In this document: positions 12,997 to 29,316 of the stretch, piece by piece | Layout of the letters: each line of letters begins with the position of its first letter | Numbering within the stretch: position 1 is the first letter of the stretch | IMG/VR virus record: IMGVR_UViG_3300045988_125011 | DNA: 64,000 nt | Source of the DNA: a virus | Direction: 5' to 3' (one strand) | The notes under the pieces: model-generated | The model's database searches: none | Told to the model about the DNA's origin: nothing | The model's input: only the letters and a program-made list of their open reading frames with translations | Position numbers and translations under genes: made by a program

Positions 12997-13007
12997 TGCG
13001 CCACAGA

Positions 13008-13385: not shown

Positions 13386-14522
13386 ATGGTCTATATCACT
13401 GTTAGGCAGTCACCGATTTATCATCAGATGACACTGGAAGAGTACCTGTTTCAAAACTATCAGACACCTCCGGTTGTCAATGCCAATATTGCAAACACAA
13501 GAACATACGAGGTCGAAAATGTCAGTGAACATTTTTCCAGCAAGATTGGCGTTGAAGCTTTAATCGGAAAACTCGTGCGATTTAATAACGATACAGCAGA
13601 GCTTCGTGCAAAGGAACGGAGCGAGTTGTATGAGACTTTTTACATCCCAAAGAAATCTGGTGGTCTTCGTAGAATCGATGCGCCAAAGGCAGAGCTGATG
13701 GACGCCCTGAGAAGACTCAAAACGATTTTCGAGGATGATTTCCATGCACTCTATCATACTGCCGCGTTTGCTTATGTAAAGAAGCGGAGTACAGTCGATG
13801 CGGTTAAGCGTCACCAGAAGAACAGCAGCAAATGGTTCGCAAAGCTTGACCTGCACGACTTTTTTGGCAGCACAACATTGGATTATGCCATCTCAATGTT
13901 CTCGATGGTTTTTCCTTTTAGTGAGATTGTAAAAGAGCCACAGGGCGAGGCAGCATTGCGGACAGCTATGTCGTTAGCGTTCTTAAATGGTGGGCTACCG
14001 CAGGGTACCCCAATTTCACCGCTTATCACAAACGTAATGATGATTCCGGTTGATTTCAAACTGTCGAATACGCTCCGTAATTTTGAAAAACAGAGCTTCA
14101 TTTATACCAGATATGCGGATGACTTCATCATTTCATCCAAGTATGATTTTGATGTTCGTTCTGTTGAAGAGCTGGTAGTAAGTACATTGAACAGCTTTGG
14201 TGCCCCGTTCACAATCAATGCAAGCAAGACTCGGTATGGTTCATCAGCAGGGCGCAACTGGAATCTTGGCGTTATGCTGAATAAGGACAACGAGATTACG
14301 GTCGGTCATAAAAAGAAAAAGCAGTTCCAGTCAATGCTGTACAATTACATCACAGATAAGAACAATGGTGTCGCTTGGGAACGGAATGATGTACAGGTAA
14401 TGTATGGTCTGCATAGCTATTATCGTATGGTCGAAAAAGAGACCATCGACGCAATTGTAGCTTACATCAACAAGAAAATGAATGTGGATGTAATCCGTAT
14501 GATGAAGGACGACCTGCGGTAA
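13386..14522 (+). CDS. reverse transcriptase (retron/DRT/DGR-like single-domain RT, 378 aa)
   Basis: RT motifs FYIPKKSGGLRRI, LDLHDFF, GLPQGTPISPLITNV, YTRYADDFIIS (YADD box), plus retron-type AYVKKRSTVDAVKRH; RBS aaggaggggaagaaATG. Confidence 0.85.
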   Translation: MVYITVRQSPIYHQMTLEEYLFQNYQTPPVVNANIANTRTYEVENVSEHFSSKIGVEALIGKLVRFNNDTAELRAKERSELYETFYIPKKSGGLRRIDAPKAELMDALRRLKTIFEDDFHALYHTAAFAYVKKRSTVDAVKRHQKNSSKWFAKLDLHDFFGSTTLDYAISMFSMVFPFSEIVKEPQGEAALRTAMSLAFLNGGLPQGTPISPLITNVMMIPVDFKLSNTLRNFEKQSFIYTRYADDFIISSKYDFDVRSVEELVVSTLNSFGAPFTINASKTRYGSSAGRNWNLGVMLNKDNEITVGHKKKKQFQSMLYNYITDKNNGVAWERNDVQVMYGLHSYYRMVEKETIDAIVAYINKKMNVDVIRMMKDDLR

Positions 14523-14557
14523 CGTCTATAAATAACCCGCAATCCTGTAATGCATAA

Positions 14558-14632
14558 TTGCGAAAGCAATGCTTATCGCCAAAGGCATAAGTAACAACTT
14601 GATAGGGAGGAAAACCTCCCCAGAGGCGCATT
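14558..14632 (+). repeat. Copy 2 of the three-hairpin motif (ttgcGAAAgcaa, cttat-CGCCAAAGGC-ataag, agtaacaa, gggaggaaaacctcccc), immediately downstream of the RT stop
   Basis: About 55-nt direct repeat of copy 1 with covarying stems. Confidence 0.6.
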
Positions 14633-14835
14633 CACCTGCAGACTCAAGTCATCCTTCGAGGCTGGGAACCACACGGTGAGCAGCCCGAATCACTCGAATC
14701 CATTGTGGCACAATGGATTCAACGAGCCTGACCAAAGGATGTCGCACGCCAGACACTGGGTGCCGGAGCTCCTCCTCACGAGGAGCTACCTCCATGTAGA
14801 TTACAGGGTAATCAAATTATCATTTGCAGTGAATA

Positions 14836-14900
14836 ACATTTCGTAAGGAATGTGCTTCACGCCAAAGGCTGAAGTATCACTTTGCTGGACAGCACAATTC
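14836..14900 (+). repeat. Copy 3 of the hairpin motif (acatttcGTAAggaatgt, cttca-CGCCAAAGGC-tgaag)
   Basis: Same architecture; the stem again differs by compensatory changes. Confidence 0.55.
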
Positions 14901-15125
14901 CCCGCCCGCAGCCTGCTGCGAAGGCGCCTAAGCCAGCTGTACAGCTCATTAAAACTAATCTGGATGTCTCGTCACCTCCATCTGATGAGCGACCGACGAA
15001 CCCATTGTCTCCCAATGATTTCATCATCGCCACTTGGGATTTGAACTCGCTTTCAGCTCATCTAAATCCCGTCGTTACAGGAGATAAACAAAGAGACCAG
15101 AGCAGAATATACATATGGACTGCAG

Positions 15126-15824
15126 ATGAGAAAGGAACTGAGCATGATTTATGTCACTGGAGATACACACGCAAACATTGATATTGCCAAGCTTAATACA
15201 ACAAAGTTCCCACAACAAAAGGAATTGACGAAGAGTGATTTCGTAATCATATGTGGCGATTTCGGACTATGCTGGGACGGTTCGCATCGAGAGATGTGGT
15301 GGCAAGACTGGCTGACAGCGAAAAACTTTACGACACTTTGGATTGATGGCAACCATGAGAACTTTGATATGCTCTACCAGTTCCCGCTGATTGACAAATT
15401 TGGCGGAAAGGTGCGTGAAATCGCTCCTGACATCTATCATCTGGACAGAGGGCAGGTGCTCACGATTGATGGAAAGAAAATCTTCTGCATGGGCGGTGCT
15501 CGCTCTGTTGATAAAGAGTATCGCGTGGAACATATCTCATGGTGGAAAGAGGAAATGCCGTCCAGAGAAGAAATGGAACGAGCGATTGCAGCACTCGAAC
15601 AAAATAATTGGCGAGTTGACTATGTAATTACACATTGTGCGCCAAGGAGTGTTCAGACTCTGCTCGCAAGCTGGTACGAGAACGACCCGATGGTCAGCTT
15701 TTTGGATAGGGTTTGTTCCGACCTCACATTCAAGCGGTGGTTCTTTGGACATTATCATGTGGACAAGCAGGTCAATGAGCAATTTATTGCTCTGTATAAT
15801 AAAGTAATTCCAATGGAGTGGTAA
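15126..15824 (+). CDS. calcineurin-like metallophosphoesterase
   Basis: GDTHANID, CGDFG and GNHE metallophosphatase motifs; alternative start ATG 15144; the 3' end overlaps the first nucleotides of tRNA-Ser. Confidence 0.7.
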   Translation: MRKELSMIYVTGDTHANIDIAKLNTTKFPQQKELTKSDFVIICGDFGLCWDGSHREMWWQDWLTAKNFTTLWIDGNHENFDMLYQFPLIDKFGGKVREIAPDIYHLDRGQVLTIDGKKIFCMGGARSVDKEYRVEHISWWKEEMPSREEMERAIAALEQNNWRVDYVITHCAPRSVQTLLASWYENDPMVSFLDRVCSDLTFKRWFFGHYHVDKQVNEQFIALYNKVIPMEW

Positions 15825-15904
15825 GCCTAACGGTAAGGCAGCGGTTTGCTAAACCGTGAGTAATCCGAAAGGATGTGCAGGTTCAAGTCCTGTCCACTCC
15901 GCCA
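15815..15904 (+). tRNA. tRNA-Ser (anticodon GCT), long variable arm
   Basis: Acceptor ggagtgg/ccactcc; anticodon loop ttgctaa; CCA encoded. Confidence 0.8.
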
Positions 15905-15980
15905 AGGGGTGTGGTGCAATGGCTAACATAGCGGTCTCCAAAACCGTCAGATGGTGGTTCGAATCCATTCACCCCTGCCA
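15905..15980 (+). tRNA. tRNA-Trp (anticodon CCA)
   Basis: Acceptor aggggtg/cacccct; loop ctccaaa; CCA encoded; directly abuts tRNA-Ser. Confidence 0.8.
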
Positions 15981-16166
15981 GTTGTTGGGTAGCTCCCAAC
16001 TGATGTGAGCGATTATCGGCTTACCTCACAAAGAATGAAAATGCTTGCTGAAAACTGCGCTTGTCTTGATGCGTCAAGACCGGTTTGACCTGACGGAATA
16101 GGGGCTACGACTTTTCGGAGCGTAGTTGCCGGTAGCGTGTGACAATCTAAGCGAGAAGCCGACCAT

Positions 16167-16243
16167 GCGGCGTTGGTGTTCAACGGTTAGCACTCCGGTC
16201 TTCCAAACCGGTGGTGCCAGTTCGAGTCTGGTACGCCGCTCCA
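16167..16243 (+). tRNA. tRNA-Gly (anticodon TCC)
   Basis: Acceptor gcggcgt/acgccgc; anticodon stem ccggt/accgg; loop cttccaa; CCA encoded. Confidence 0.85.
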
Positions 16244-16360
16244 AGTAAGAAACCATTAAATTATGCGTTAAAGGAAATGCCTTTACGACACGTCAGAGCC
16301 TGCTCTGGAAGTCGGTTACAGGTTGGTTTGGCGGGACGCCGCTGCATGAGCCTGCAGATA

Positions 16361-16435
16361 CAGGGGTATGGTGAAGCGGTAACACAGCGGACTTTGACTC
16401 CGTTATTCGTAGGTTCAAATCCTACTGCCCCTGCC
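16361..16435 (+). tRNA. tRNA-Gln (anticodon TTG)
   Basis: Loop ctttgac; T-arm gtagg-ttcaaat-cctac; 75 nt; CCA encoded. Confidence 0.85.
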
Positions 16436-16595
16436 AAAATCATCTTCGGCATTAGAGCTTGTTTTCTATCCCTGCAATCCCTTGTGCCACGATGATTTAT
16501 CCATGATTCTCCTTTCACGCTATCAAAACTGCCATCATAGTGAGTTTGTATTGGTGGTGTTAATGACATCGCCATAGTTTCAGGATGGCATCTAT

Positions 16596-16671
16596 GCTGG
16601 AATAGCTCAACTGGTAGAGTAACGCTTTCGTACAGCGTGGGTTCTCGGTTCGACTCCGAGTTCCAGCTCCA
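16596..16671 (+). tRNA. tRNA-Thr (anticodon CGT)
   Basis: Acceptor gctggaa/ttccagc; anticodon stem acgct/agcgt; loop ttcgtac; CCA encoded. Confidence 0.85.
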
Positions 16672-16784
16672 TCTGCTCTGTTGGTCATGCTTACGTTTGT
16701 ACGGTTAGTTCATCACTCAACTGTTATCTCTGTAAGAGACACAGCCGGGTGCACACGGAGTCCTACGGGCGCAGGGCGTATCTA

Positions 16785-16858
16785 TGCTGATGTAGCTCAG
16801 TTGGTAGAGCAGCACCGGAAGTGCGAGCCGCTGGTTCAAGTCCAGTCATCAGCAGCCT
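16785..16858 (+). ncRNA. Degenerate tRNA-like element. Acceptor stem gctgatg/catcagc, D-arm and T-arm are canonical, but only 18 nt lie between D- and T-arms (4-bp stem gcac/gtgc, 5-nt loop), so it has no anticodon loop and ends GCC rather than CCA.
   Basis: Hand fold gives a total of 69 nt; cannot make a standard cloverleaf. Confidence 0.4.
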
Positions 16859-16898
16859 TTTAGCTAAAAGCTGACACCTCGGAAAGACGAGGGTGCAC

Positions 16899-16974
16899 GC
16901 TGGTGTAGCGTAATTGGTAGCGCAAGTGATTTGTACTCACTGGGTTGCGGGTTCGAGCCCTGTCACCAGCTCCA
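16899..16974 (+). tRNA. tRNA-Thr (anticodon TGT)
   Basis: Acceptor gctggtg/caccagc; anticodon stem agtga/tcact; loop tttgtac; CCA encoded; two G-U pairs in the T-stem. Confidence 0.8.
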
Positions 16975-17008
16975 ACGGACTGACATATCCGTTTTCCTTT
17001 CTGCCCCG

Positions 17009-17092
17009 GCACGCACTACTAAGCATTGATGGCGATGCTTATGGTGAGGATGGTTCGAACCCATCAGTAGTGCGTGTGCGTTCGGAAACAAA
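17009..17092 (+). ncRNA. tRNA-like or mini-helix structure: an 11-bp closing stem (cacgcactact/agtagtgcgtg) enclosing a 6-bp hairpin (aagcat..atgctt) and a canonical T-arm (gatgg-ttcgaac-ccatc), with no D-arm
   Basis: Structure read by hand in the spacer between tRNA-Thr and tRNA-Pro. Confidence 0.3.
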
Positions 17093-17102
17093 ACCATTAT
17101 AT

Positions 17103-17178
17103 CTGGGTGTAGCACAGGTGGTAGTGCGCTTGCTTTGGGAGCAAGATGTCGGGGGTTCGAGTCCTCTCGCCCAGACCA
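17103..17178 (+). tRNA. tRNA-Pro (anticodon TGG)
   Basis: Anticodon stem cttgc/gcaag; loop tttggga; CCA encoded. Confidence 0.8.
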
Positions 17179-17199
17179 ATTTCATAGAGGAGGGTTGCC

Positions 17200-17682
17200 A
17201 TGTATCTGTATCACGGTACTCCGGCAGATTTCGATGTACCAACCCTGAACAAGTGTAAGCCGCACCGAGATTTCGGATGCGGCTTTTATCTTGCCACAAA
17301 TTATTTCGATGCCTTGCCGATGGCAGTCAAAAACTCTCGGGTGGGATATGTCCAAACATATCTGCTCACAGACTTGGATGGACTTTCCGTTCTGGAGTTT
17401 GATGAAAGGTCTGAGGATTGGCTTCGGTTCGTGGTTTCTTCAAGGCTCGGCACCGCTCCAAATGTCGATTTGGTAATCGGATATATGGCTGGCGGAGGAA
17501 GTAATTTGAAAAGTAAATTTACAAAGCTGAGAAATAGCAATGTGTCGATTGACGTGGCGGCTACAGCAATGCGAAAAGAGTTAACCAGTACGCAGCTTGG
17601 CGTACAATATGCGTTCCTGACAGAAAAAGCATTGTCCAAGCTCGTTAGGGTCTCAACTGAAATAGTGGAAATGGAGGATTAA
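17200..17682 (+). CDS. hypothetical protein with an H-G-T...Y...E arrangement reminiscent of H-Y-E (PARP/DarT-like) ADP-ribosyltransferases
   Basis: MYLYHGTPADFD resembles the PARP HGS motif; downstream GCGFYLA (Y) and LEFDERSED (E); this is inference only. Confidence 0.3.
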   Translation: MYLYHGTPADFDVPTLNKCKPHRDFGCGFYLATNYFDALPMAVKNSRVGYVQTYLLTDLDGLSVLEFDERSEDWLRFVVSSRLGTAPNVDLVIGYMAGGGSNLKSKFTKLRNSNVSIDVAATAMRKELTSTQLGVQYAFLTEKALSKLVRVSTEIVEMED

Positions 17683-17685
17683 AAC

Positions 17686-18240
17686 ATGACAAGGAATGAA
17701 TTTATTGACAATATCACTGAGTGGTGTGAACTGAAAGACTTTTGCAACGACTTTGACTGCGATATCTGTGAGGACATCTATGACGATGATGATTACGATG
17801 ACAGCGTCGAAGAAGATATCCGCGATGCTATCGCCGACTACGGCTGGAGGGACATCCGAGACTTCCTTGGCAACCTCCCCAGCGGGTACTATTACTACCG
17901 TCGTAACAGCGCCTTTGATTATGATGGTCTCGATGACGATGACTTCGAAGACTACAAAGAGGATGTCCTCGAATGGGGCGATGACTACGGCGCATGGGAC
18001 GACGAGGAAGATGAAGATGAAGAGTACGCCGATGCAGATGACGACTTCCTCGATTCTCTGGAAGAGGAACCCGACGAAGATGAAACCATTGAGGAAGAGG
18101 ATTTCTCCATCGATGACCTCATCGGTATGTGCAGTGTAGTGTTTGTGGCTATCCAGAATGATGAAGTGGAAAAGCAGCAAGAAGAAGACGAGGCGTTCGC
18201 ACAGCTCCTGAGCATGGATGGGAGACGTATTGCAACCTAA
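17686..18240 (+). CDS. hyper-acidic protein (very high Asp/Glu content), possible DNA-mimic or anti-restriction-like protein
   Basis: Composition read directly: runs such as DDDDYDD, DEEDEDEEYADADDDF, EEEPDEDETIEEED. Confidence 0.6.
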   Translation: MTRNEFIDNITEWCELKDFCNDFDCDICEDIYDDDDYDDSVEEDIRDAIADYGWRDIRDFLGNLPSGYYYYRRNSAFDYDGLDDDDFEDYKEDVLEWGDDYGAWDDEEDEDEEYADADDDFLDSLEEEPDEDETIEEEDFSIDDLIGMCSVVFVAIQNDEVEKQQEEDEAFAQLLSMDGRRIAT

Positions 18241-18676
18241 AACATAAGCGGATAACCGCTATGATACAGACCGCTTTGAAGATTGACTACATACATATGT
18301 CTCAGCAAAACGTGTAGTATCTTCTCGCTTAAAGCAGAAGAAAAGATTTGAGTTCTTCATTTTTAGCCTCGCATTTCCGAGGTTATAATTTTTATTCAGC
18401 GAATAAAAATAATAACCCGGAAATTGCTTGCTAAAAATGTCACTTTGTGCACATGGGGCTTCTGTAACAATCACGCCCCATGCGGAAAGCGGTCGGCAAA
18501 TTGAGAACGGAGGCGAGTTCAATGACAGACAAGAATAGGCGAAAACTTCAAGCGAAGAGAGCACGCAATTTCTGGACTTGTGCTCGTCCCGTTACTCAAA
18601 TTGTTCCAAACAAACGAGCTTATAATCGTAAGCGCGAGAAGGATATTCGTTACAAGTATAAGGAGGGCGAGCAAGA

Positions 18677-19198
18677 ATGAGATATCAGAGCACCCCAGAA
18701 AAAGAATTTGATGGCGACATTATCATTACAGACCCGTGTTACATCATTCGCAAGGAAAACGGGATAACTAAAAACGACTGGCACTATTGTGAGTACGGTG
18801 AATATATGGAGCGACTTGGGATTAAAAATTATCTGACCCATGACACCATCTATGGAGACTGGGGATGCACAGTTTTTGATTCTGACACAAAGAAACCGTT
18901 GGGACGATTCTGTGCAGATGCCGGTCTTGTATCTGTATTTCTGCTGGATGAAGTTCTTGCCTATAACCCAAACTTCAATTATCACGTAGAGAGACCGTGG
19001 ACAACTACGATAATTCCAGACTTCAAAGGGACTATTCAAATCGAAGTTGTAAGAGAAACCGGTACCTTCCAAGAGGACTCTGAGTATTGGAAAGCGGGAG
19101 AAACTTGGGAAGATTACCTCGTCCATGTTGTTGGGCATGGTGTAAACAAGAAAACAGGTAAAGCGATAAACTTTATTAGCAAACAAACGTCGCTGTAA
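18677..19198 (+). CDS. hypothetical protein
   Basis: 173-aa ORF with RBS aaggagggcgagcaagaATG. Confidence 0.5.
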   Translation: MRYQSTPEKEFDGDIIITDPCYIIRKENGITKNDWHYCEYGEYMERLGIKNYLTHDTIYGDWGCTVFDSDTKKPLGRFCADAGLVSVFLLDEVLAYNPNFNYHVERPWTTTIIPDFKGTIQIEVVRETGTFQEDSEYWKAGETWEDYLVHVVGHGVNKKTGKAINFISKQTSL

Positions 19199-19213
19199 GA
19201 TGGAGGGTGAAGA

Positions 19214-19774
19214 ATGAAGGTTCTTGTTGTCGTTGATATGCAGAACGACTTTATTGATGGTACACTTGGCACACCGGAGGCGCAGGCTATTGTGCCGAAG
19301 GTCGTCAAGAAAATCAAAGAGTTTGATGGGGAAGTTTTGTGGACACAAGACACCCATTCTGATGATTACCTCGAAACGCAAGAAGGAAGACTGTTGCCGG
19401 TAGAACACTGTATATCTGCAAGTAATGGCTGGCAGATTCATAGCTCAGTCAAAGCAGCAATTCAGAGCAAGCATCCAGTGGATGACCAGTTGAATGGTTT
19501 CGAGAAGAAAACGTTTGGTTCATTAGCACTTGCTGGTCGCCTATATCCAGAAGTTGCGTTTGGTGATGGCATAGAAGAAATTGTCCTTGTCGGTCTTTGT
19601 ACCGATATCTGTGTTATCTCAAACGCCTTGCTGCTCAAGTCGTTCATGCCGGAAGTTAAGATTACGGTCGATGCTTCCTGCTGCGCTGGCGTGACACCAG
19701 AGAGTCACAAGACTGCACTGTCGGCAATGAAAATGTGCCAGATTAACATCGAGAACGAGGGGGTCACGGCATGA
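19214..19774 (+). CDS. isochorismatase-family cysteine hydrolase (nicotinamidase PncA-like)
   Basis: VVVDMQNDF N-terminal motif and VGLCTDICV catalytic Cys context. Confidence 0.7.
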   Translation: MKVLVVVDMQNDFIDGTLGTPEAQAIVPKVVKKIKEFDGEVLWTQDTHSDDYLETQEGRLLPVEHCISASNGWQIHSSVKAAIQSKHPVDDQLNGFEKKTFGSLALAGRLYPEVAFGDGIEEIVLVGLCTDICVISNALLLKSFMPEVKITVDASCCAGVTPESHKTALSAMKMCQINIENEGVTA

Positions 19775-20559
19775 TTCTTGTCAACGACAAGCAGGTCGAG
19801 TTTACAAAGTTCCCTGATGGTACAACCTCTTTTAGGTATAATCCGTTTGGCTCAATGACTCGCATCTTCAATATCACATGGAAGTATGACGGCGATGAGG
19901 AGTGCATCCTTCTATGGTATCTGGTAAATCATATCCGCGACCATGACCGGAACGTTCGCCTCCGCTTGCTGCTCCCATACATTCCAAATGCCAGAATGGA
20001 TAGAGTAAAAAATGCGGACGAAGTGTTTACGCTAAAATGGTTTGCGCAGTTTATCAATATGCTGAATTTTGACGACGTGTTAGTCGATGACCCTCACTCG
20101 AATGTATCAGCAGCATTACTTGACAGAGTCAAGGTATATGACGCGCAGCCGCACATCCAGAAAGCTCTGGACAAGTTGGATGACAAAAATGTGTTGCTGT
20201 GCTATCCTGATGAGGGAGCAGCAAAACGATATTCATCGCAAGCTGGTAGAGAGTATGTGTTCTGCATCAAGCACAGAGACTGGCGCACCGGGAAAATTGA
20301 ACGGCTGGAACTGACGAGCCCAGAAAAGGTTACCGATAGAAATGTGCTGATTGTCGATGATATTTGTTCTCGCGGAGGCACATTCACTTTTACAGCTAAG
20401 GCACTAAAAGAGGCTGGCGCGAATGAAGTGTATTTGTATGTGACCCATTGTGAAAACACAATTCACAGTGGAACGGTTCTCACAGACGGCTTAATCAGTC
20501 GTGTGTTTACCACAGATAGTATCTATCGCGGAAATAGCGAGATGATTTCGCTCATTTAA
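19771..20559 (+). CDS. ribose-phosphate pyrophosphokinase (Prs)-like phosphoribosyltransferase-fold protein; candidate ADP-ribose pyrophosphokinase of a NAD reconstitution pathway
   Basis: PRPP-binding loop NVLIVDDICSRGGT and Prs-like C-terminal EVYLYVTHCENTIHSG; 262 aa. Confidence 0.55.
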   Translation: MILVNDKQVEFTKFPDGTTSFRYNPFGSMTRIFNITWKYDGDEECILLWYLVNHIRDHDRNVRLRLLLPYIPNARMDRVKNADEVFTLKWFAQFINMLNFDDVLVDDPHSNVSAALLDRVKVYDAQPHIQKALDKLDDKNVLLCYPDEGAAKRYSSQAGREYVFCIKHRDWRTGKIERLELTSPEKVTDRNVLIVDDICSRGGTFTFTAKALKEAGANEVYLYVTHCENTIHSGTVLTDGLISRVFTTDSIYRGNSEMISLI

Positions 20560-20578
20560 TCTTAAAGGAGGCGGGCAA

Positions 20579-21784
20579 ATGCTTGAGTTACAGGGTAAGT
20601 TTGGCACTGCAAAGGTGTTTACCGACGTGGTCGATAATGAGTCTATCTCTCAGGTTATCAATCTTTTGAATCAACCGTACATCGAGGGAAGCAAAGTCCG
20701 TATGATGCCAGACATTCATGCTGGGGCTGGTTGTACAATCGGAACCACGATGACCATCAAGGATAAGATTTGCCCGAACCTTGTCGGCGTTGACATTGGA
20801 TGCGGCATGGAAACTATCCGTATCAAAGAAACGCATATTGAACCGCAGAAGCTGGACAAAGTTATTCGTGCAGGAGTTCCGTCCGGTTTCGAGATTCGCA
20901 CAGAAGCTCATAGATATGCAAGTAGCATCGACCTGTCGGAACTGTGCTGTGCAAAGATGGTCAATGTAGACCGCGCATATAAAAGCATCGGTACGCTTGG
21001 TGGAGGGAATCATTTCATCGAAGCCAACAAAGATGATGATGGACACATCTATATTGTGGTGCATTCCGGTAGTAGACACCTTGGTCTGGAGATTGCTAAC
21101 TTCTATCAGGAAGCTGCGTTCAAGGCGTTAACCTCGTATTCCAAGGAAGAAATCGAGGAGGTCGTCAACGAGTTAAAAGCGGCTGGAAGACAAAGAGAAA
21201 TCCAAGCTGTTCTTAAAGGCATGAAGGCGAAGAAGCCGGGAGTTCCAAAGCAGCTTGCATACGTTGAGGGAGAATTGTTTGAGCAGTATATCCATGACAT
21301 GAAAATTGCTCAACGTTTTGCTGAGCTTAACCGCCAAGCAATGATGGACACCATTGTTAAGGGTATGGGCTTCCATGTCGAAGAGCAGTTTACGACTATT
21401 CACAACTACATCGATGTAGAGAATATGATTCTTCGCAAGGGCTCGGTCTCTGCACAGGCTGGTGAGCGGCTGCTGATTCCTATCAACATGAGAGACGGTA
21501 GTTTGCTGTGTACCGGCAAAGGAAATGAAGACTGGAACTTCTCTGCCCCGCATGGAGCTGGGCGTTTGATGAGCCGCAGTGCAGCGAAAGAGACATTCAC
21601 AGTTTCTGAGTTCAAGAAGCAGATGGAAGGCATTTACACCACATCTGTTGGAAGAAGCACACTCGATGAATGCCCGATGGCATACAAAGGTATGGATGAT
21701 ATCGTAAACAATGTCGAACCGACAGTGACCATTGATGCCATCATCAAGCCGATTTATAACTTTAAGGCGGGTGAAGAGGAATGA
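20579..21784 (+). CDS. rtcB: RtcB-family RNA ligase (3'-phosphate/5'-OH)
   Basis: MPDIHAGAGCTIGTT, VGVDIGCGM, GGGNHFIE and SAPHGAGR motifs align with E. coli RtcB; 401 aa. Confidence 0.9.
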   Translation: MLELQGKFGTAKVFTDVVDNESISQVINLLNQPYIEGSKVRMMPDIHAGAGCTIGTTMTIKDKICPNLVGVDIGCGMETIRIKETHIEPQKLDKVIRAGVPSGFEIRTEAHRYASSIDLSELCCAKMVNVDRAYKSIGTLGGGNHFIEANKDDDGHIYIVVHSGSRHLGLEIANFYQEAAFKALTSYSKEEIEEVVNELKAAGRQREIQAVLKGMKAKKPGVPKQLAYVEGELFEQYIHDMKIAQRFAELNRQAMMDTIVKGMGFHVEEQFTTIHNYIDVENMILRKGSVSAQAGERLLIPINMRDGSLLCTGKGNEDWNFSAPHGAGRLMSRSAAKETFTVSEFKKQMEGIYTTSVGRSTLDECPMAYKGMDDIVNNVEPTVTIDAIIKPIYNFKAGEEE

Positions 21785-22005
21785 TGATAGTCCTTTTGGT
21801 ACTCCTGTACCTCTGCATTGGTGCGATTGTAACATTCGCACTTTGCCGCTTGTACACTATCGTAGAACCATATGACAAATATAACGGCTTCGAATGCGAG
21901 TATATCGTGGTAGGTGTTTTCTGGATTGTTGCAGCACCGTTTGCGTTTGCTGTGTTTTTTGCGAAATATGGTGAAAAACTAAAGAAAAGAGGAAAAGCTG
22001 AATGA
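21781..22005 (+). CDS. small membrane protein
   Basis: 74 aa with two hydrophobic segments. Confidence 0.4.
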   Translation: MMIVLLVLLYLCIGAIVTFALCRLYTIVEPYDKYNGFECEYIVVGVFWIVAAPFAFAVFFAKYGEKLKKRGKAE

Positions 22006-23414
22006 TTACATACAATCCGCTCCTGTGTCTGGACTTCTATAAGACTTGTCACGCTGAACAGTATCCGAAGGGATTGACCAAGATGGTCTCATACTACACG
22101 CCGCGCATGAGTCGCCTTAGTGATACCGATAAGGTTACACTGTTTGGGCTTCAGGCATTCATTCAGGAATATCTCATTGAGGCATTCAACGACCACTTCT
22201 TTAATGTCCCGTTTGATAGTGTACTCAAGGAGTACACCAGAGTTCTTGGGGCAACAATCAGAACGAAAGGCGTTGGAGAGAAACGGCTTCGTGAATTGCA
22301 TGACCTCGGCTATCTTCCGTTACAGATTCGTGCTGTTCCCGAAGGAACGAGAACCAATATCAAAGTTCCGCAAATTGAAATCTCAAATACACACCCTAAC
22401 TTCGTATGGCTGGTCAACACCATCGAGACGATGCTCTCTTGCACAATGTGGCATACGCAAGTCTCCGCTGAGGTTGGGTACAGATATCGTAAAATCGTCA
22501 ATGAGTATGCAGAACGCACTTGCGATGACAATGTGGTTCGTGCGAGACTCCTTGGCGATTTTTCTATGCGCGGGCAAGAGAGCGTTGAAAGTGCAACAAA
22601 GAGCGCAGCGGCTTTCTGCCTGAGCTTCTTGAATACAGCGACAGTGCCTGCGATTTTGTGGCTTGAGCATAATTACAACTGTGATTGTAGCAAGGAACCT
22701 GTCGCATATGGTGCGCTCTCAACAGAACACAGCGTAATGTGTTCCAACTTTGCTGTTGACGGTGATGAGGTGACACAGATTCGACGACTTCTTTGTGAGG
22801 TGTATCCGCATCAAAGTTTCTCAATGGTTAGCGACAGCTATGACTATTGGAATCTTGTTGAAAAAGTCCTCCCTCAGCTCAAAGATGACATCCTAAATCA
22901 CGATGGCTTCATCTCAATTCGCGGCGACAGCGGTGACCCTGTTAGTGTAATCACTGAGACCGTATATCGTCTGTGGGACATCTTTGGCGACAAGCGTACT
23001 GAAATCAATGCCGAGTTGGATACCTATTTGCGTGAGAAGTTCGACCAGTATGGCATCATTATTGACACTGTAAACTTTACGGATATCTCAGTTGACGATG
23101 AAACGGCTGCGGCTATCCAGAAGAAAGTCACTGCTCAGCAGGAGCTTGAGTTGGCGAATATTGAAAAGCAAACCGCCAAGGTTCAGGCTGAGAAAGATAG
23201 AGAGGTCGCACAGATTAACGCAGAGAAAGCAGTTATTGAAGCAGAAGCAAAAGCAGAGACATTGCGTATTGCTGCGGAGGCAGAAGCCGACGCAAACCGC
23301 AAGATTGCGGCTTCACTTACCAATGAGTTGATTGAAAAAATCAAGTATGAGCAGTGGAACGGAGAGCTGCCTACGGTGACTGGCTCAACGCCCATCATTA
23401 GTCTCGAACCGTGA
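22002..23414 (+). CDS. NAMPT/NadV-family nicotinamide phosphoribosyltransferase homologue, truncated core with a C-terminal Ala/Glu-rich coiled-coil extension (candidate Namat-type enzyme)
   Basis: LLCLDFYKTCH, LQIRAVPEG, GDFSMRG, MVSDSYD and IRGDSGDP align with NAMPT; the last ~100 aa are a low-complexity helical segment. Confidence 0.7.
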   Translation: MITYNPLLCLDFYKTCHAEQYPKGLTKMVSYYTPRMSRLSDTDKVTLFGLQAFIQEYLIEAFNDHFFNVPFDSVLKEYTRVLGATIRTKGVGEKRLRELHDLGYLPLQIRAVPEGTRTNIKVPQIEISNTHPNFVWLVNTIETMLSCTMWHTQVSAEVGYRYRKIVNEYAERTCDDNVVRARLLGDFSMRGQESVESATKSAAAFCLSFLNTATVPAILWLEHNYNCDCSKEPVAYGALSTEHSVMCSNFAVDGDEVTQIRRLLCEVYPHQSFSMVSDSYDYWNLVEKVLPQLKDDILNHDGFISIRGDSGDPVSVITETVYRLWDIFGDKRTEINAELDTYLREKFDQYGIIIDTVNFTDISVDDETAAAIQKKVTAQQELELANIEKQTAKVQAEKDREVAQINAEKAVIEAEAKAETLRIAAEAEADANRKIAASLTNELIEKIKYEQWNGELPTVTGSTPIISLEP

Positions 23415-23626
23415 TGGAAAAATGGTGGGACAATGCAAAAGATTGGGTTAAAGTTCTAATTTGCATTGCTGTCTCCATCGTCTCGATTGCGCTAATCATT
23501 CTTACGATGATTATGCCAATTGTTTGGAGCATCAAGATGCATAACCCAGCCTTTCTGCTTTTGTGGTGCATCCCCGCTGGCATCTTTGTCGGCGTATGGG
23601 CTTACCAAGAGTTTTTTGATTTCTAA
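23411..23626 (+). CDS. small membrane protein
   Basis: 71 aa, hydrophobic. Confidence 0.4.
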   Translation: MMEKWWDNAKDWVKVLICIAVSIVSIALIILTMIMPIVWSIKMHNPAFLLLWCIPAGIFVGVWAYQEFFDF

Positions 23627-23642
23627 ATAAGGAGGAGATTAT

Positions 23643-24134
23643 TTGACAGCCGTATATCTGGTCATTTTATTTTTCGCTAAGGTGCTGGACAACACGCTTG
23701 GTACAGCCAAGACAATCTTGGTACAGAGAAATCGTTGTGTCCTTGCCGGAGTCGCTCTCGGCTTGTCAAATTTTATCTACCTTAGCATCACAAAAGATAT
23801 TGTAACGAGTGACAGCAGCCTCGCCCTTGCAACTGTTTCCATTGCAAGCGGTGTTGGCTGCTGTTTAGCTGTCGCATTAAGCAACAGGTTTTCAAAAGAC
23901 AAGACCTATGTGAACGTCATTATGTCGGATAATTTGGAGGCGATGCAAGAGTTTCGAGATTTTCTGGCAACACAGCACATCACGAATGTCGCTGCAGACA
24001 GCTATACCTTGGACTGGAGCAAAAAGTCCATTACCATCACTGCCTATGCAGAGACAAAAGCACAGAGCAAACTGATTGATGATTACATCGCAAATAGCTC
24101 ATTGAAGTTCAAAAGAGTTATCAGCAGAAGCTAA
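23643..24134 (+). CDS. membrane protein (TTG start)
   Basis: 163 aa with N-terminal transmembrane segments; RBS aaggaggagattaTTG. Confidence 0.45.
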   Translation: MTAVYLVILFFAKVLDNTLGTAKTILVQRNRCVLAGVALGLSNFIYLSITKDIVTSDSSLALATVSIASGVGCCLAVALSNRFSKDKTYVNVIMSDNLEAMQEFRDFLATQHITNVAADSYTLDWSKKSITITAYAETKAQSKLIDDYIANSSLKFKRVISRS

Positions 24135-24170
24135 AAACGATGGTTTTAATAATTCAAAGGAGGGTGTCCT

Positions 24171-25256
24171 ATGCGACATTTGGCAACAATCCGTGAGATT
24201 GCATCTCTTCGCCCGATTGCAGGAGCTGACCGCATTGAAGTTGCGCAGGTCGATGGTTGGGAATGTGTGGTTCAGAAGGGCGAGTTCCATACAGGAGAGC
24301 ATATCGTTTACATTGAGGTCGATTCTATCGTCCCAGAGCGCCCAGAGTTCGAGTTCTTGAGAGACAGAAAGTTCAGAGTCCGCACCATTAAGCTGCGTGG
24401 TCAGGTCAGTCAGGGTTTGGTTCTCCCACTGTCAATCCTTCCGAATGGTACTCCTGCAATTCTTGGCGCCGATGTGACAGACGCTTTGGGCATTAAGAAG
24501 TATGACCCAGAAGCGCAGCAAGAAGCACAGCTCTTGACAAAGCAACCGCAAAAACCGCAGAGCGCAATCGCTCGCTTCCTGATGCGATTCAAGTGGTATC
24601 GCAAACTGTTTATGAAGCCCAAGCGCAAGGGAGGATTCCCCGACTGGATTGCCAAGACGGATGAGACCCGCATTCAAAACCTTACGACGCTCTTTGAGAT
24701 GGAGCGTAACAAGGGAACGAAGTTCTCTGTCACAGAGAAAGTTGATGGGCAGTCAGCGACGTATTACCTGCGTAAAGTTTCCAAACGCAAGTATGAGTTT
24801 GGCGTTTGCAGCCGTAATATCTATCTCGGAACACCGGATAACAGTTCTTACTGGACGATTGCTAAGAAGTACAATATCGAAAACGTACTGCGACAGCTTA
24901 TCGGTGATTATGAAACCATCGTTTTACAAGGTGAGATTTGCGGCAACCAGATTCAGGGCAACAAGTACCACATTAGTGGTTACGACTTGTTTGCCTTCAA
25001 CCTGATTTATCCAGACCACAAGTGTGGCACGGCAGAAATCAAGAAACTGCTTGAGCCGTATGGAATTAAGACTGTTCCGATTATTGAGGAGGACAAAACC
25101 CTGCCCGAAACTATCGCTGAGCTGGTCGAGTATTCCAAGGGAAAATCAGTGGTTCGTAAGGAACAAAAACGAGAAGGTGTAGTTATGCGCAATGTCCAGA
25201 GCAACATCAGCTTCAAGGTCATCAATCCTGACTTCCTTCTCGCAGAAAAGGACTGA
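24171..25256 (+). CDS. ATP-dependent RNA ligase (Rnl-type nucleotidyltransferase with an N-terminal OB/tRNA-binding-like domain)
   Basis: Lysine-adenylation motif TEKVDGQSATYY (KxDG); 361 aa. Confidence 0.6.
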   Translation: MRHLATIREIASLRPIAGADRIEVAQVDGWECVVQKGEFHTGEHIVYIEVDSIVPERPEFEFLRDRKFRVRTIKLRGQVSQGLVLPLSILPNGTPAILGADVTDALGIKKYDPEAQQEAQLLTKQPQKPQSAIARFLMRFKWYRKLFMKPKRKGGFPDWIAKTDETRIQNLTTLFEMERNKGTKFSVTEKVDGQSATYYLRKVSKRKYEFGVCSRNIYLGTPDNSSYWTIAKKYNIENVLRQLIGDYETIVLQGEICGNQIQGNKYHISGYDLFAFNLIYPDHKCGTAEIKKLLEPYGIKTVPIIEEDKTLPETIAELVEYSKGKSVVRKEQKREGVVMRNVQSNISFKVINPDFLLAEKD

Positions 25257-25261
25257 TTTTT

Positions 25262-25741
25262 ATGAGTGGTAAATCAACAGACTTGACCAACAGAACATTC
25301 GGAGAATTAAAAGTGGTCAAGCGAGCTGAAAACAGCAACAGCGGTCAACCAAGGTGGCTGTGCGAATGTAGATGCGGCAAGACTTGCATCGTTGATGGGC
25401 GATTCCTCAAAAATGGTGCCGTAAAATCTTGCGGGTGTTTGCCGAGAGGTGTTCCGCAAGGTGAAATGCCGGAGCGAGCAATGGCACAACCATCGGTAAG
25501 CCTTGGGCGGTTGAGAAAAAGTAACGATGACCCTTGGCGCAATTTGGCGAATGCCATTGTTGCAGTTGCAGCGGATGATTATCGTTCGGCACTTCGTAAT
25601 GAAGACGAGGGATTGTTGAAAAGTCTGGAGAGGTTCTTCCATTCTGAATGGTACAGGATTTTGACGGACGTAGATGCAGACAGGCTTCTCGGAATGTTAC
25701 GAAGAGAACGGAGCGGCTCATTACAAGCCGCTTACATATAA
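25262..25741 (+). CDS. hypothetical Cys-rich (zinc-binding) protein
   Basis: WLCECRCGKTCIV...KSCGC cysteine cluster. Confidence 0.45.
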   Translation: MSGKSTDLTNRTFGELKVVKRAENSNSGQPRWLCECRCGKTCIVDGRFLKNGAVKSCGCLPRGVPQGEMPERAMAQPSVSLGRLRKSNDDPWRNLANAIVAVAADDYRSALRNEDEGLLKSLERFFHSEWYRILTDVDADRLLGMLRRERSGSLQAAYI

Positions 25742-25815
25742 ACAGAGCCGAGTTATTCGGCTCTTTTCTTTGAGCAATCCAGCTTATGATTGCTTGAAGA
25801 AAAGAATCGAAAGGA

Positions 25816-26178
25816 GTGACACAAATGCTCAGAGTTCACAGAGATTTCAAGGGGCTGTTGAAAGATGTGCAGGACGAATATGATTTCCTCGTTGAACTGA
25901 ATAAGAGCCTGCAAAAGAAGGTCGCCGAATGGAACAAGGATGAAGAGATTCAAAGGGCAGTGGAGATGACTGAGTATTGTCGCACCCATTCCTTATGTCA
26001 GATGTCAGATAACGAGAAGAAAGCAGAAAGAGCGTTCAGAGACAGTCACTACAAGTCATGTAAGAATGGCAGCAAGTATTTGTACGAGTTGACCGGAACA
26101 GGCATTGGAACGGCGATTACAATTAAGTGTCCTGTCTGCGGCGAAGAAAAAGACATTACTGACTACGATTGCTGGTGA
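25816..26178 (+). CDS. hypothetical protein with a C-terminal zinc ribbon
   Basis: CPVCGEE...; 120 aa. Confidence 0.45.
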   Translation: MTQMLRVHRDFKGLLKDVQDEYDFLVELNKSLQKKVAEWNKDEEIQRAVEMTEYCRTHSLCQMSDNEKKAERAFRDSHYKSCKNGSKYLYELTGTGIGTAITIKCPVCGEEKDITDYDCW

Positions 26179-26188
26179 GGTGGTGGAC

Positions 26189-26350
26189 ATGATTTTTCGT
26201 GTAATTCTGTTTGCGCTGGCAACAGCAGCAGTCATTGGCGGTCTTGCATATTGGTTGAAGTGTCTTTGCCTGTGCGACTATGAAAATGCTTGTGACTATT
26301 CGCAGTGCGATAGTTGTCCGTTCCCTTGTGAGAGGCATAATTGTGGGTAA
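26189..26350 (+). CDS. small membrane/Cys-rich protein
   Basis: Internal ATG with RBS gaggtggtggacATG; TM helix then CLCLCDYENACDYSQCDSC. Confidence 0.3.
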   Translation: MIFRVILFALATAAVIGGLAYWLKCLCLCDYENACDYSQCDSCPFPCERHNCG

Positions 26351-26550
26351 GGCGAAAAGAAAACCAAGACCATCAATGCCAGACTGGTTTTGGTGGGGGC
26401 AAGACGGGTGCTGGTTCTGCAAACAAAGAAATAACTGCAATCAGTGTAAGGCGAACCGTGAATATGCAAAAGAGTTCGGAGAGAAGAAGCAAAAAGGAAG
26501 ACACGCCAGCGCAAAGCGAGGAGCGCGGACGAAACTGCAATTGATGGAGG

Positions 26551-26862
26551 ATGATTATGGATTTGTGGAAGGGATATGAGCTAAGCAGGACATATGTCCC
26601 AGCGGCTTATTACACGATTACATCGATTAAGAGCAAAAACGGCAGAGCAAATCCATTGCATGACGAGGTGCTCGGTCGAAAGGCATACGTTGTTTACTTG
26701 GAGGTCGGAGAGCGTGGCTTTATCAAGTATTTGCCCGATTATGACGACCGGTATCATTGCCTACATACATCTACTGTTTTGGATTTTACTCCGTGGGGAA
26801 ACGGCGAAGGCACAATTACTATCCAAACAGCAAATACGGAGTATATCTTGACGAAGCAGTAA
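26551..26862 (+). CDS. hypothetical protein
   Basis: 103-aa ORF. Confidence 0.4.
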   Translation: MIMDLWKGYELSRTYVPAAYYTITSIKSKNGRANPLHDEVLGRKAYVVYLEVGERGFIKYLPDYDDRYHCLHTSTVLDFTPWGNGEGTITIQTANTEYILTKQ

Positions 26863-26885
26863 GACTTTTCATCAGGAGGTCAATC

Positions 26886-27380
26886 ATGCTTGAGTTCTGT
26901 GGAAGAAAGTTCACTTGCGATGAATGCCCAATTTGTGAAGGCATTGAGCATAGGCTCGGGGTTGCAAGAGAAGGTGGCTACGAACCGCAGCTTGAATACT
27001 GCGGTTGCGATAAAGTCCAGACTGAGTTTTTTATCAGTGGTTATTGCAGTGATGCTTTTGAGGCGGACAAGCCGCATGGCAAACTGTGTGAACCGAGAAA
27101 AACCGGGAGAGCATATCGGCGCAAGATGCGCAAACAGAAGAAAGAAAAGCTGATGCGTATTATGACCTACGGATATAAGTCAGGTATCGGCTATACAGAC
27201 TGGGGTTGGAAAGACGGCGTTTATCAGCCGGTCGGAAGTTACATCCAGTACCCCAAGAACTCAAACAGGCAGACGTTTTGGAAGACATATTCCAACAGGA
27301 AAATCAGAAGCTATAAGGGCAATATTCGTAAGGGAAATTCGTACCGGAGACATTTCGATTATGCGTGGGAGGTTGACTAA
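26886..27380 (+). CDS. hypothetical Cys-rich basic protein
   Basis: Start moved to ATG 26886 (RBS aggaggtcaatc); CDECPICEG motif. Confidence 0.45.
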   Translation: MLEFCGRKFTCDECPICEGIEHRLGVAREGGYEPQLEYCGCDKVQTEFFISGYCSDAFEADKPHGKLCEPRKTGRAYRRKMRKQKKEKLMRIMTYGYKSGIGYTDWGWKDGVYQPVGSYIQYPKNSNRQTFWKTYSNRKIRSYKGNIRKGNSYRRHFDYAWEVD

Positions 27381-27820
27381 TGGAGAATAAAAATATGCGG
27401 AAGCTCAATGTGACCGTCCAATGTATGGCTGTGTATAACAGCAGCATTATGGTTCCACGCGAACTGACGTTTGAAGAGGCAATCAAATATGCCAAAGAAC
27501 ATATTGACGAGATTAACCTTGGCGAACTTGAGTACATTTCAGACAGCGATGAGCTCGACGAAGAGAACTGCGACTTCGACGAGGAGGAAGACACCGACTC
27601 TGATTGTAGGGTGCTTTATGAAACTGGCATTGAGGAGCCAGAAATCCTTGGCTCCGGGTCAACGTACAGCAATGTTGTATATTCCCCGGATGAAGAGCGT
27701 GCCTTTGAAGAATTCCATCACTGTGGACGGAACTATCTGCACAGGATAACTTACCGCAAAAAGTCACCGTACACAACTACGGAGTGGTGGGACGAAGACC
27801 TGAAATGCTGGCGGAGCTAA
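27380..27820 (+). CDS. hypothetical acidic protein
   Basis: 146-aa ORF. Confidence 0.45.
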   Translation: MENKNMRKLNVTVQCMAVYNSSIMVPRELTFEEAIKYAKEHIDEINLGELEYISDSDELDEENCDFDEEEDTDSDCRVLYETGIEEPEILGSGSTYSNVVYSPDEERAFEEFHHCGRNYLHRITYRKKSPYTTTEWWDEDLKCWRS

Positions 27821-27826
27821 GCCGCT

Positions 27827-28042
27827 ATGGATATATTTTTTAAGAACGATGGTTCATACAGTCAATCAGCAGTGGGAATCCCAGTCCTTGTGGACTACAC
27901 ACCGGTTGGATTTGTACGAGAAGTTAATGCCGACATGGTAACGTGCTCCCTATTCGATAAATTCATCGGGAAAGAGTGGTTGGCGCAGAGTCTGACGACA
28001 AAAGAACCGGACATATGCTCTGTATATATCGATACAAAATGA
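27827..28042 (+). CDS. hypothetical small protein
   Basis: 71-aa ORF. Confidence 0.35.
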   Translation: MDIFFKNDGSYSQSAVGIPVLVDYTPVGFVREVNADMVTCSLFDKFIGKEWLAQSLTTKEPDICSVYIDTK

Positions 28043-28054
28043 TGGAGGTATAAC

Positions 28055-28468
28055 ATGGGAGTAAGTATCAGCGAGTTTAGAGGTGAGTATTATTTTCTGA
28101 GTAACTTCTACTCGGCACCAGTTACCTACAACGGAATGTGTTTTGAGAATAACGAGGCGGCGTTTCAAGCGGCTAAATGCCCAGAACGTATGACTGAGTT
28201 TTGCCATCTGAATCCGTCAGAGGCAAAGAGGCTTGGGCGTAGGGTTAAGCTCCGTGGTGACTGGGAGGCGGTCAAAGATACCGTTATGTATGAGATTTGC
28301 AAGGCAAAGTTCTCACAGAATCCTGATTTGGCAGACAAGCTTGTTGCGACCAGGGATGCCGAACTCATTGAAGGCAATACTTGGGGCGACCGCATCTGGG
28401 GCGTCTGTGATGGCGTTGGAGAAAATCGCCTTGGTAAAATCCTTATGCGGGTCAGAGCAGAAATGTGA
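28055..28468 (+). CDS. NADAR (YbiA/DUF1768) domain protein
   Basis: FLSNFY, AFQAAK, EAKRLGR, AKFSQNPDLADKL, GNTWGD...GENRLGKILMRVRAEM align along the full length with E. coli YbiA. Confidence 0.85.
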   Translation: MGVSISEFRGEYYFLSNFYSAPVTYNGMCFENNEAAFQAAKCPERMTEFCHLNPSEAKRLGRRVKLRGDWEAVKDTVMYEICKAKFSQNPDLADKLVATRDAELIEGNTWGDRIWGVCDGVGENRLGKILMRVRAEM

Positions 28469-29310: not shown

Positions 29311-29316
29311 TTTGAT

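Follow-up and report, generated by a model that had tools for sequence, protein, structure and literature searches.

A probable deletion-damaged NARP1-like NAD-reconstitution module in a human-gut phage, and intact relatives that may use nicotinate

Two phage pathways of NAD reconstitution, NARP1 and NARP2, have been described (bioRxiv 10.1101/2024.02.11.579819), and further reports have added NARP1-AP with its Macro phosphatase Adpp (10.64898/2026.01.28.702374), RyDEP inserted in NARP1 operons (10.64898/2026.05.28.727677) and NARP3 (PMC13464706). Here we analyse a locus related to NARP1, the pairing of the ADP-ribose (ADPR) pyrophosphokinase Adps with the NAMPT-fold transferase Namat. It occupies positions 19214-23414 of a 64,000-nucleotide stretch of the IMG/VR virus record IMGVR_UViG_3300045988_125011, and we refer to this whole stretch as the window. 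The region consists of five tightly packed open reading frames (ORFs), all on the + strand, and we read it, with a probability of about 0.8, as a conserved phage module for NAD reconstitution that a deletion has damaged. Judged by its sequence relationships, this module is NARP1-like, and neither NARP2-like nor a generic pair of Prs and NAMPT.

The chimeric transferase gene

The ORF at 22002-23414 encodes 470 amino acids, of which residues 3-333 match NAMPT-family profiles (NAMPT_N and NAPRTase over 7-326; positions 12-345 of the 500 in PHROG 448), while residues 326-463 match Band_7/SPFH (PHROG 200, 2e-26; Pfam Band_7, 1.7e-7). The product is made up of residues 1-329 of a Namat/NAMPT-family enzyme (22002-22989, + strand) followed, in the same reading frame, by the C-terminal 141 residues of an SPFH/Band-7 protein (22990-23414, + strand). 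A first-pass annotation, made from the letters of the sequence, had described a protein that is NAMPT-like through GDSGDP and then continues as an Ala/Glu-rich helical tail, a description that the profile matches bear out. The wild-type form of the enzyme is represented by P0003, a protein of 496 residues that stands for a cluster of 3,374 member sequences and shares 99% identity with the window product over residues 1-329; the exact 470-residue protein occurs on only two contigs in a large protein collection. The contigs that encode P0003 (L003-L006) have about 98% DNA identity to the window. Their gene order is isochorismatase, Pribosyltran, RtcB, a 74-residue ORF, the NAMPT-like transferase (496 residues), Macro (150 residues), NAD_synthase/NadE (248 residues), an ATP-dependent DNA ligase (424 residues), ORFs of 132 and 58 residues and Band_7 (296 residues), and the genes 3' of Band_7 are the same as in the window.

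The break between the two arrangements can be placed precisely. In blastn, window 12001-22989 aligns to L003 14-10988 and window 22977-27378 to L003 15011-19412, with a 13-bp overlap. At window 22977-22989 lies the single remaining copy of a 13-bp direct repeat, GACATCTTTGGCG, which L003 carries at 10976-10988 in the Namat-like gene and again at 15011-15023 in the Band_7 gene; both copies encode D-I-F-G in the same frame. Compared with the wild type, the window is missing exactly 4,035 bp between the two repeats, that is, the last 167 transferase codons, Macro, NadE, the ligase, the two small ORFs and the first 151 SPFH codons, and what remains of the SPFH gene is collinear with L003 15024-15448. 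Recombination or replication slippage between the repeats has removed this segment and left the in-frame chimeric ORF. The wild-type Band_7 protein has its Band_7 match (1.9e-25) at residues 28-222, covering profile positions 2-172, whereas the remnant in the window matches positions 110-172 of 176 only; the SPFH domain is incomplete, and the fusion retains the end of the domain and the helical C-terminus while the N-terminal half is lost. Neither a tblastn match to the transferase C-terminus nor a phmmer match to Macro, NadE or ligase homologues was found elsewhere in the 64 kb. The unusual C-terminal extension that had been singled out for testing is no functional novelty but a scar of the deletion that took away the last 167 residues of the transferase, and its coiled coil would have no designed role.

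The junction lies within a short repeat and the window is an assembly, so that an assembly or chimeric-contig artefact had to be considered. However, the same junction is found in an independent assembly of another run whose sequence is about 2% different, and there are two more deletions, each with its own junction, of which one was seen in two samples; on the strength of these independent assemblies and further junctions we rejected this explanation, to which we give next to no weight. Moreover, the repeat is only 13 bp long, which is probably too short for a false join at usual assembler k-mer sizes. The independent assembly is L007, a Logan contig from run ERR11594172, which encodes the identical chimera on DNA with a divergence of 1-3% from the window. 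In L008 (ERR10683771) the Namat-like and Band_7 genes are again fused in frame, at a different junction that joins NSKGY to DDETAAA. L249 and L250 (ERZ28639511 and ERZ28014244, two samples) have in common a deletion of 1,486 bp, as a result of which transferase codon ~268 runs directly into the middle part of nadE, and L251 shows a loss of 1 nt in an A5 run of the transferase gene, which may be a sequencing error. The PncA-like, Adps-like and RtcB genes are intact in the deletion alleles wherever the contig covers them. Judged from these contigs, deletions have struck the transferase gene of this phage species repeatedly, in at least three independent events. In exact-match scans of IMG/VR and of JGI metagenome contigs, the wild-type junction came up 13 and 15 times, respectively, and the window junction in neither set. 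The phage is thus a common one of the human gut, and the deletion alleles are rare among its variants.

The chimera might conceivably be a new protein with a function of its own, such as a nicotinamide/nicotinate binder or decoy in which the SPFH coiled coil tethers or oligomerises a Namat N-domain. In favour of this, the reading frame is preserved across the fusion and the native start is still there, two contigs of differing DNA encode an identical protein, and a second in-frame fusion joins the same two genes. However, two contigs with this junction and one with another have to be set against the 3,374 members of the wild-type cluster, the window-type and L008 junctions differ by 8 and 35 codons, so there is no conserved fusion point, and the N-terminal half of SPFH is gone. 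Furthermore, the two window-type alleles do not have the same closest wild-type allele. Over the transferase part, the window comes closest to wild-type L009, with 6 differences, and L007 to wild-type L010, with 2, and 10 sites distinguish the two deletion alleles. Because of these separate affinities, it seems more plausible that the deletion between the repeats arose more than once, or that it was moved by recombination with wild-type phages, and for the same reason the purely synonymous differences between them are uninformative on selection. Purifying selection on the fusion, as a way to account for an identical chimeric protein on diverged contigs, was rejected on this ground, and we regard a functional chimera as very improbable.

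What the truncation should mean for the enzyme can be read from the crystal structures of SPbetaL1 Namat, which define 20 NAD-contacting residues (PMC12774641). In an alignment to PDB 9w5x, the chimera has lost 9 of these 20 positions, the equivalents of G360, D361, A362, G390, S391, F392, T398, R399 and D400, which hold the ribose, the phosphates and the adenine in Namat (PMC12774641). Retained are D11, Y13, R38, F187, S188, R190, H243, R307 and D309, which are the equivalents of Namat D13, Y15, R40, F189, S190, R192, R306 and D308 together with the catalytic His. The Y396 position of Namat, which is Pro in the wild-type relatives, is also within the deleted part, and these relatives have the ribose and phosphate ligands G349, D350, G379, S380 and R402. 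The in vivo rescue by SPbetaL1 Namat is abolished by R306A and by clamp mutants such as R40A/F392G (PMC12774641). P0003 was also modelled with AlphaFold2, from a shallow alignment and with moderate confidence (mean pLDDT 70), and the model was used only for an approximate count of lost secondary-structure elements and not for the pocket. In it, 8 strands and 4 helices follow residue 329, so that the chimera would be without roughly a third of the fold. Such a protein is predicted to be unable to make the dinucleotide. Because the nine ligand positions, NadE and Macro are all lost, NAD reconstitution is predicted to be non-functional, and the window variant should be unable to regenerate NAD through this module. 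It would still deamidate nicotinamide by way of PncA and would probably still make ADPR pyrophosphate (ADPR-PP) by way of Adps. That the PncA-like and Adps-like genes are intact is as expected for a recent deletion.

Some points weigh against reading the locus as simply broken. NAMPT-family dimers share active sites, so the truncated subunit might conceivably be rescued by an intact partner, either from a full-length gene outside the 64 kb or from a co-infecting wild type. The identity of the chimera in the window and L007 despite their differing DNA could be read as purifying selection, a reading that the allele affinities given above do not favour. Both of the fusions that reach SPFH are in frame (chance 1/9), which may hint at selection for translation into the downstream genes.

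A different possibility is that the remnant is adaptive without its transferase, with Adps draining ADPR or ADPR-derived signals into ADPR-PP and PncA removing nicotinamide. Indeed, none of the three kinds of deletion touches PncA, Adps or RtcB, the 5' end of the lost segment always falls within the transferase gene and never upstream of it, and at least three independent deletions have hit the same segment. However, in the NARP1 papers considered here no anti-defence effect was left once a pathway gene or key residue had been inactivated, alleles with the deletion are seldom found, and the flanks are about 98% identical to the wild type, which fits recent events, so that intact neighbours prove nothing. 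Nor does nicotinamide removal give the phage any obvious help; it would relieve product inhibition of NADases. We consider an adaptive remnant unlikely and retain deletion damage as our reading of the locus.

The deleted segment also contains the phage ATP-dependent DNA ligase (L003 12701-13975). As the 64 kb of the window yielded no second DNA ligase, the deletion variant may depend on the NAD-dependent ligase of its host.

Partner enzymes and the pocket of the intact relatives

The gene at 19771-20559 (+ strand, intact) encodes a Prs-fold protein of 262 residues that matches Pfam Pribosyltran and Pribosyl_synth as well as PHROG 619, 'ribose-phosphate pyrophosphokinase' (1e-77), and contains VLIVDDICSRGGT. 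It is Adps-like: its identity to SPbetaL1 Adps is 37% (E 2e-44), against E 1e-13 for the best true phosphoribosyl pyrophosphate (PRPP) synthetase (PRPS) in the PDB. It is without the C-terminal helices of PRPS and about 50 residues shorter, as Adps is described to be (PMC13586617), and the first-pass annotation was right in calling it a Prs-like product that bears the PRPP loop and falls some 50 residues short of housekeeping Prs. We mapped it, via the ICP1 sequence, onto the ICP1 Adps of the structure paper (PMC13586617). Residues F18, R87, H121, D161 and K185 of ICP1 Adps are F14, R75, H109, D147 and K167 here, and D212, D213, I214, C215, F221 and F223 are D196, D197, I198, C199, F205 and F207. 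The catalytic Lys (K167), the DDIC PP-loop, G202-G203-T204 and the two-Phe lid (F205/F207) are retained, while F92 (ICP1 numbering) is conserved neither here nor in the validated SPbetaL1 Adps. The full-length transferase, for its part, scores 407 bits against the Namat structure sequences 9w5x/9w5w and 150-173 bits against real NAMPTs. The earlier proposal that a Prs-like kinase and a NAMPT-like transferase form a NAD-reconstitution pair holds by family, with E values of 2e-44 and 1.5e-90 to the SPbetaL1 pair. A separate nicotinamide mononucleotide (NMN) adenylyltransferase (NMNAT), which the same annotation had said would speak against such a pair, was not found: NMNAT, NadD, NadR and CTP_transf_like are all without a match among the called ORFs of the 64-kb window (Pfam scan, E<=1e-4).

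The first gene of the region, at 19214-19774 (+ strand, 186 residues, intact; Pfam Isochorismatase, 1.6e-24), is read as encoding a PncA-type nicotinamidase. The best PDB match of its product is the Pyrococcus horikoshii nicotinamidase/pyrazinamidase 1im5, with which both active-site sets align, the catalytic triad D8/K86/C133 with D10/K94/C133 and the metal ligands D46/H48/H65 with D52/H54/H71; its match to the NCBIfam nicotinamidase equivalog is weak (29.7 bits vs a cut-off of 174). This hydrolase had been set outside the described pathway, but together with NadE it is a conserved part of a larger module, as the intact relatives make apparent.

In these relatives the nicotinamide pocket is changed. 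The residue aligned to Namat Asp215 (human NAMPT Asp219) is Ala213 in the window and Ala in all close relatives, and the position of Namat Ala242 is Ser in the window (S240) and in its relatives, in a local pocket alignment that is gap-free (LSF..T[D/A]T[I/V]PAIL and [A/S]TEHSVMC). In 2006, Khan and co-workers reportedly found that D219S lets NAMPT use nicotinate. In SPbetaL1 Namat, positions 215 and 242 line the nicotinamide pocket, Asp215 hydrogen-bonds the nicotinamide amide, and D215A brings NAD output down 8-fold (PMC12774641); Asp219 is cited as fundamental to NAMPT substrate specificity (PMC7096376). We scored pocket residues and neighbour genes at 132 IMG/VR loci that encode a homologue of either the gut-phage enzyme or SPbetaL1 Namat, which were reduced at 90% identity, with a flank of at least 4 kb required on both sides, to 59 representatives, and we took as neighbours the genes within 8 kb. 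Position 215 is Ala/Ser in 35/35 representatives of the gut-phage clade and Asp/Glu in 24/24 of the SPbetaL1-like ones. PncA-like and NadE-like genes both lie within 8 kb of 34/35 Ala/Ser-type genes, and neither is found within this distance of any Asp/Glu-type gene (0/24). This association (Fisher p = 1e-15) is uncorrected for phylogeny, and the Ala/Ser type may be one clade. Still, eight different gene orders occur among the loci, which argues that the PncA/NadE linkage has been maintained by selection. The Macro gene is linked in about a third of the loci of this clade, and the Adps-like proteins of Ala/Ser-type and Asp-type loci show no difference at the mapped active-site positions.

The other parts of the intact module are also accounted for. 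The wild-type NadE scores 168 bits against TIGR00552 (cut-off 63.65) and is an NH3-type NAD synthase. The clamp of the wild-type Namat-like enzyme reads GSF...(12-residue insertion)...YTRD, with F381 and TRD conserved and a Pro at the position of Tyr396; the window protein still has R38 but has lost the SCH clamp region to the deletion. The four genes for the Adps-like, PncA-like, Namat-like (Ala215/Ser242) and NadE-like proteins occur in genome bins of Oscillospiraceae, Lachnospiraceae and Ruminococcus, and also on contigs of up to 1.7 Mb of Clostridium isolate genomes (L201-L216, isolates and related bins), in which the transferases have the canonical adenine-clamp motif GS-Y..Y-TRD.

The replacement of Asp215, combined with the linkage of PncA and NadE, suggests a route through nicotinate. 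In this route, PncA would turn the nicotinamide that NADase defences set free into nicotinate, Adps would convert ADPR into ADPR-PP, the Namat-like enzyme, its pocket re-tuned by Asp215 to Ala/Ser and Ala242 to Ser, would join nicotinate and ADPR-PP to give deamido-NAD (NaAD), and NadE would amidate NaAD to NAD. The simplest explanation of the gene content, as far as it can be judged from sequence, is that PncA, Adps, the transferase and NadE would form a closed pathway without an adenylyltransferase. We put it at somewhat less than an even chance that the intact ancestors stand for a branch of phage NAD reconstitution that depends on nicotinate and seems not to have been described, one that is widespread in phages of gut Clostridia and has been repeatedly lost in this species. 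Perhaps such a route traps the pyridine as a charged, non-diffusible acid, or perhaps it suits hosts that deamidate nicotinamide fast, but this is speculation. The assignment of the window to phage NAD reconstitution by the first-pass annotation is correct as to family, the genes being relatives of Adps and Namat, incorrect as to the state of the copy, which is most likely broken, and probably also incorrect as to the substrate, which is likely nicotinate and not nicotinamide.

It is possible that the intact module instead performs a PRPP-based Preiss-Handler salvage, in which the Prs-like protein makes PRPP, the NAMPT-like protein makes nicotinate mononucleotide (NaMN), the NadD of the host adenylates it and the NadE of the phage amidates the product; the window copy would be equally broken. 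The replaced nicotinamide-specificity Asp is in keeping with this, PncA and NadE are the flanking steps of that route, and the NCBIfam name of the transferase family is 'nicotinate phosphoribosyltransferase'. SPbetaL1 Namat keeps a PRPP-dependent activity in vitro (PMC12774641), and a housekeeping role is conceivable for the four genes on the large Clostridium isolate contigs. However, the kinase is far closer to validated Adps than to any PRPS, with an Adps-type PP-loop and Phe lid and no PRPS C-terminal region, and the transferase retains R38, F381 and T401-R402-D403, clamp residues that are needed for the use of ADPR-PP but not of PRPP. The Clostridium-type copies even have the full aromatic motif GS-Y...Y-TRD, the Macro gene linked in about one in three loci encodes an ADP-ribose-binding domain, and no NaMN/NMN adenylyltransferase was found in the window, to which that search was confined. 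Since the kinase and the clamp residues resemble Adps/Namat rather than PRPS/NAMPT, we rate Preiss-Handler salvage below the nicotinate form of NARP1 and leave it a minor share of the probability.

Neighbouring genes and phage context

Between the Adps-like and Namat-like ORFs, which are 1.4 kb apart on one strand, lie two genes that the first-pass annotation did not mention. Its account of the cluster stands for the three ORFs, their coordinates and strand and their identities; it left out these two genes and the SPFH nature of the tail. The first is an RtcB RNA ligase (20579-21784, + strand; Pfam RtcB, 2.5e-65; PHROG 1075, 2.5e-142) and the second a 74-residue hydrophobic (membrane) ORF (21781-22005, + strand), which is present at the same position in L003-L008 and had no family match in Pfam or PHROG profile searches. 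In most of the more distant relatives an RtcB homologue was undetected and the Adps-like gene is directly 5' of the Namat-like gene, and RtcB would appear to be an insertion particular to the lineage of the window. Megablast of 19000-24200 against 50,697 GenBank phage records gave no match, and the relatives used here were obtained via protein searches and from metagenome contigs.

The window is part of a large phage, whose wild-type contigs reach 180-250 kb; the larger ORFs are mostly on the + strand. Among cultured genomes, the closest copies, with a protein identity of 76-77%, come from Dysosmobacter segnis and one further isolate of the Oscillospiraceae, which suggests an Oscillospiraceae host. 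Other genes of the window encode PolIII-alpha, DnaB, primase, ThyX and anaerobic NrdD/G. A second ADP-ribose/NAD-related gene, for a NADAR-domain protein (28055-28468, + strand; Pfam, 3.3e-26; PADLOC candidate PDC-M42C, 5.8e-14), is located 4.6 kb 3' of the cluster and is kept in the deletion variant.

RtcB belongs to an unusually rich tRNA and RNA-repair set (5679-17178, 11481-12158, 20579-21784, 24171-25256, 34608-35441 and 36678-40255, by profile matches and tRNA calls) that comprises 13 tRNA genes, ThiF, an Rnl-type RNA ligase with a PHA02142 OB domain, Thg1 tRNA-His guanylyltransferase, a NifS-like aminotransferase, RlaP and a CCA-adding enzyme with an HD domain. A reverse transcriptase (13386-14522, + strand; Pfam RVT_1) matches retron-type models best (PADLOC RT_II-A, 5.5e-46). 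A 45-nt motif (consensus about GCTTnnCGCCAAAGGCnnAAGTAnCA) occurs once 5' of it, at 13032-13076, and twice 3' of it, at 14570-14614 and 14853-14897; a template/variable repeat pair of the diversity-generating-retroelement kind was sought around this gene and none was found. At 31752-34095, an HNH/AP2 endonuclease-like ORF lies 5' of a 360-residue serine recombinase (Resolvase and Recombinase domains) with two small ORFs between them, and a PemK/MazF-like toxin gene is found at 44214-44720.

Strain-level differences are unevenly spread. Within 12-33 kb, the window has 1-45 mismatches per kb to L003 and L007, except for a peak at 29001-30000, inside a DUF1848 gene (29317-30087), where there are about 90 mismatches/kb to both. 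An indel at 27380-28054 comprises two small ORFs of the window (27380-27820 and 27827-28042), which are absent from L003 and L005; ORFs of similar size are present at the matching position in L004 and L007.

Relation to described systems

The feature in the window is in itself ordinary, a rare deletion allele, while its parent module is a well-supported variant of a known system, and no description of this variant was found in the searchable literature. An apparent domain fusion in a counter-defence gene that is in fact a deletion scar calls for caution in reading such fusions, and a rule that labels phages as NARP1-positive by gene presence would overstate what this phage can do. The comparison set brings to light a large, tightly conserved NARP1 variant in which a nicotinamidase and a NAD synthase are linked and the nicotinamide-specificity residue is replaced. 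If nicotinate and ADPR-PP are indeed joined to NaAD, this would be a new enzymatic reaction and a fourth step in the NAD arms race, and it would explain why these phages carry a nicotinamidase. The natural knock-outs, three independent deletions and possibly the 1-nt frameshift, all with intact flanks, offer material for measuring the cost and the payoff of the module.

The SPFH/Band-7 proteins (prohibitin, HflK/C-like) are related to the window product only through residues 330-470, the C-terminal end of such a protein, and unlike them the window has only a fragment, the final 141 residues out of 296, in which the first half of the domain is missing. The Preiss-Handler pathway (PncA, PncB, NadD, NadE) has in common with the intact module its first and last steps, a PncA with full sites and NadE. 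Unlike that pathway, the module has no PncB-type nicotinate phosphoribosyltransferase and no NadD, so the Adps-like/Namat-like pair would replace the middle steps, and NadE is gone from the window. NARP2 (the NAMPT NadV and the NMN adenylyltransferase NatV of Vibrio phage KVP40) likewise rebuilds NAD with a NAMPT-family enzyme, but it needs an NMNAT, none of which was found in the 64 kb, and the kinase partner here is Adps-like. As in NARP1-AP of Vibrio phage Gary, in which the Macro-domain protein Adpp is an ADPR-1''-phosphate phosphatase, the wild-type relatives have a Macro gene directly 3' of the transferase gene; in the window, however, this gene is deleted, and the wild-type Macro protein resembles the DarG macro domain (NCBIfam, PADLOC).

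The nearest system is NARP1 itself, the Adps and Namat of Bacillus SPbetaL1, E. coli Bas63 and Vibrio ICP1. In the searchable literature, the coverage of which is incomplete, no mention was found of nicotinamidase, NadE, nicotinate or NaAD in connection with NARP1. The locus shares with this system a kinase gene 5' of the gene for a NAMPT-fold transferase, identities of 37% to SPbetaL1 Adps and 44% to SPbetaL1 Namat, the conserved catalytic Lys, PP-loop and Phe lid of Adps, and the lack of an NMNAT in the window. It differs in that the window transferase is without its last 167 residues, and hence without a complete NAMPT-like catalytic core. The gut-phage clade as a whole differs as well, having Ala/Ser for Asp215, Ser for Ala242 and a 12-residue insertion in the SCH clamp, and genes for PncA and NadE that are almost always linked to the pair.

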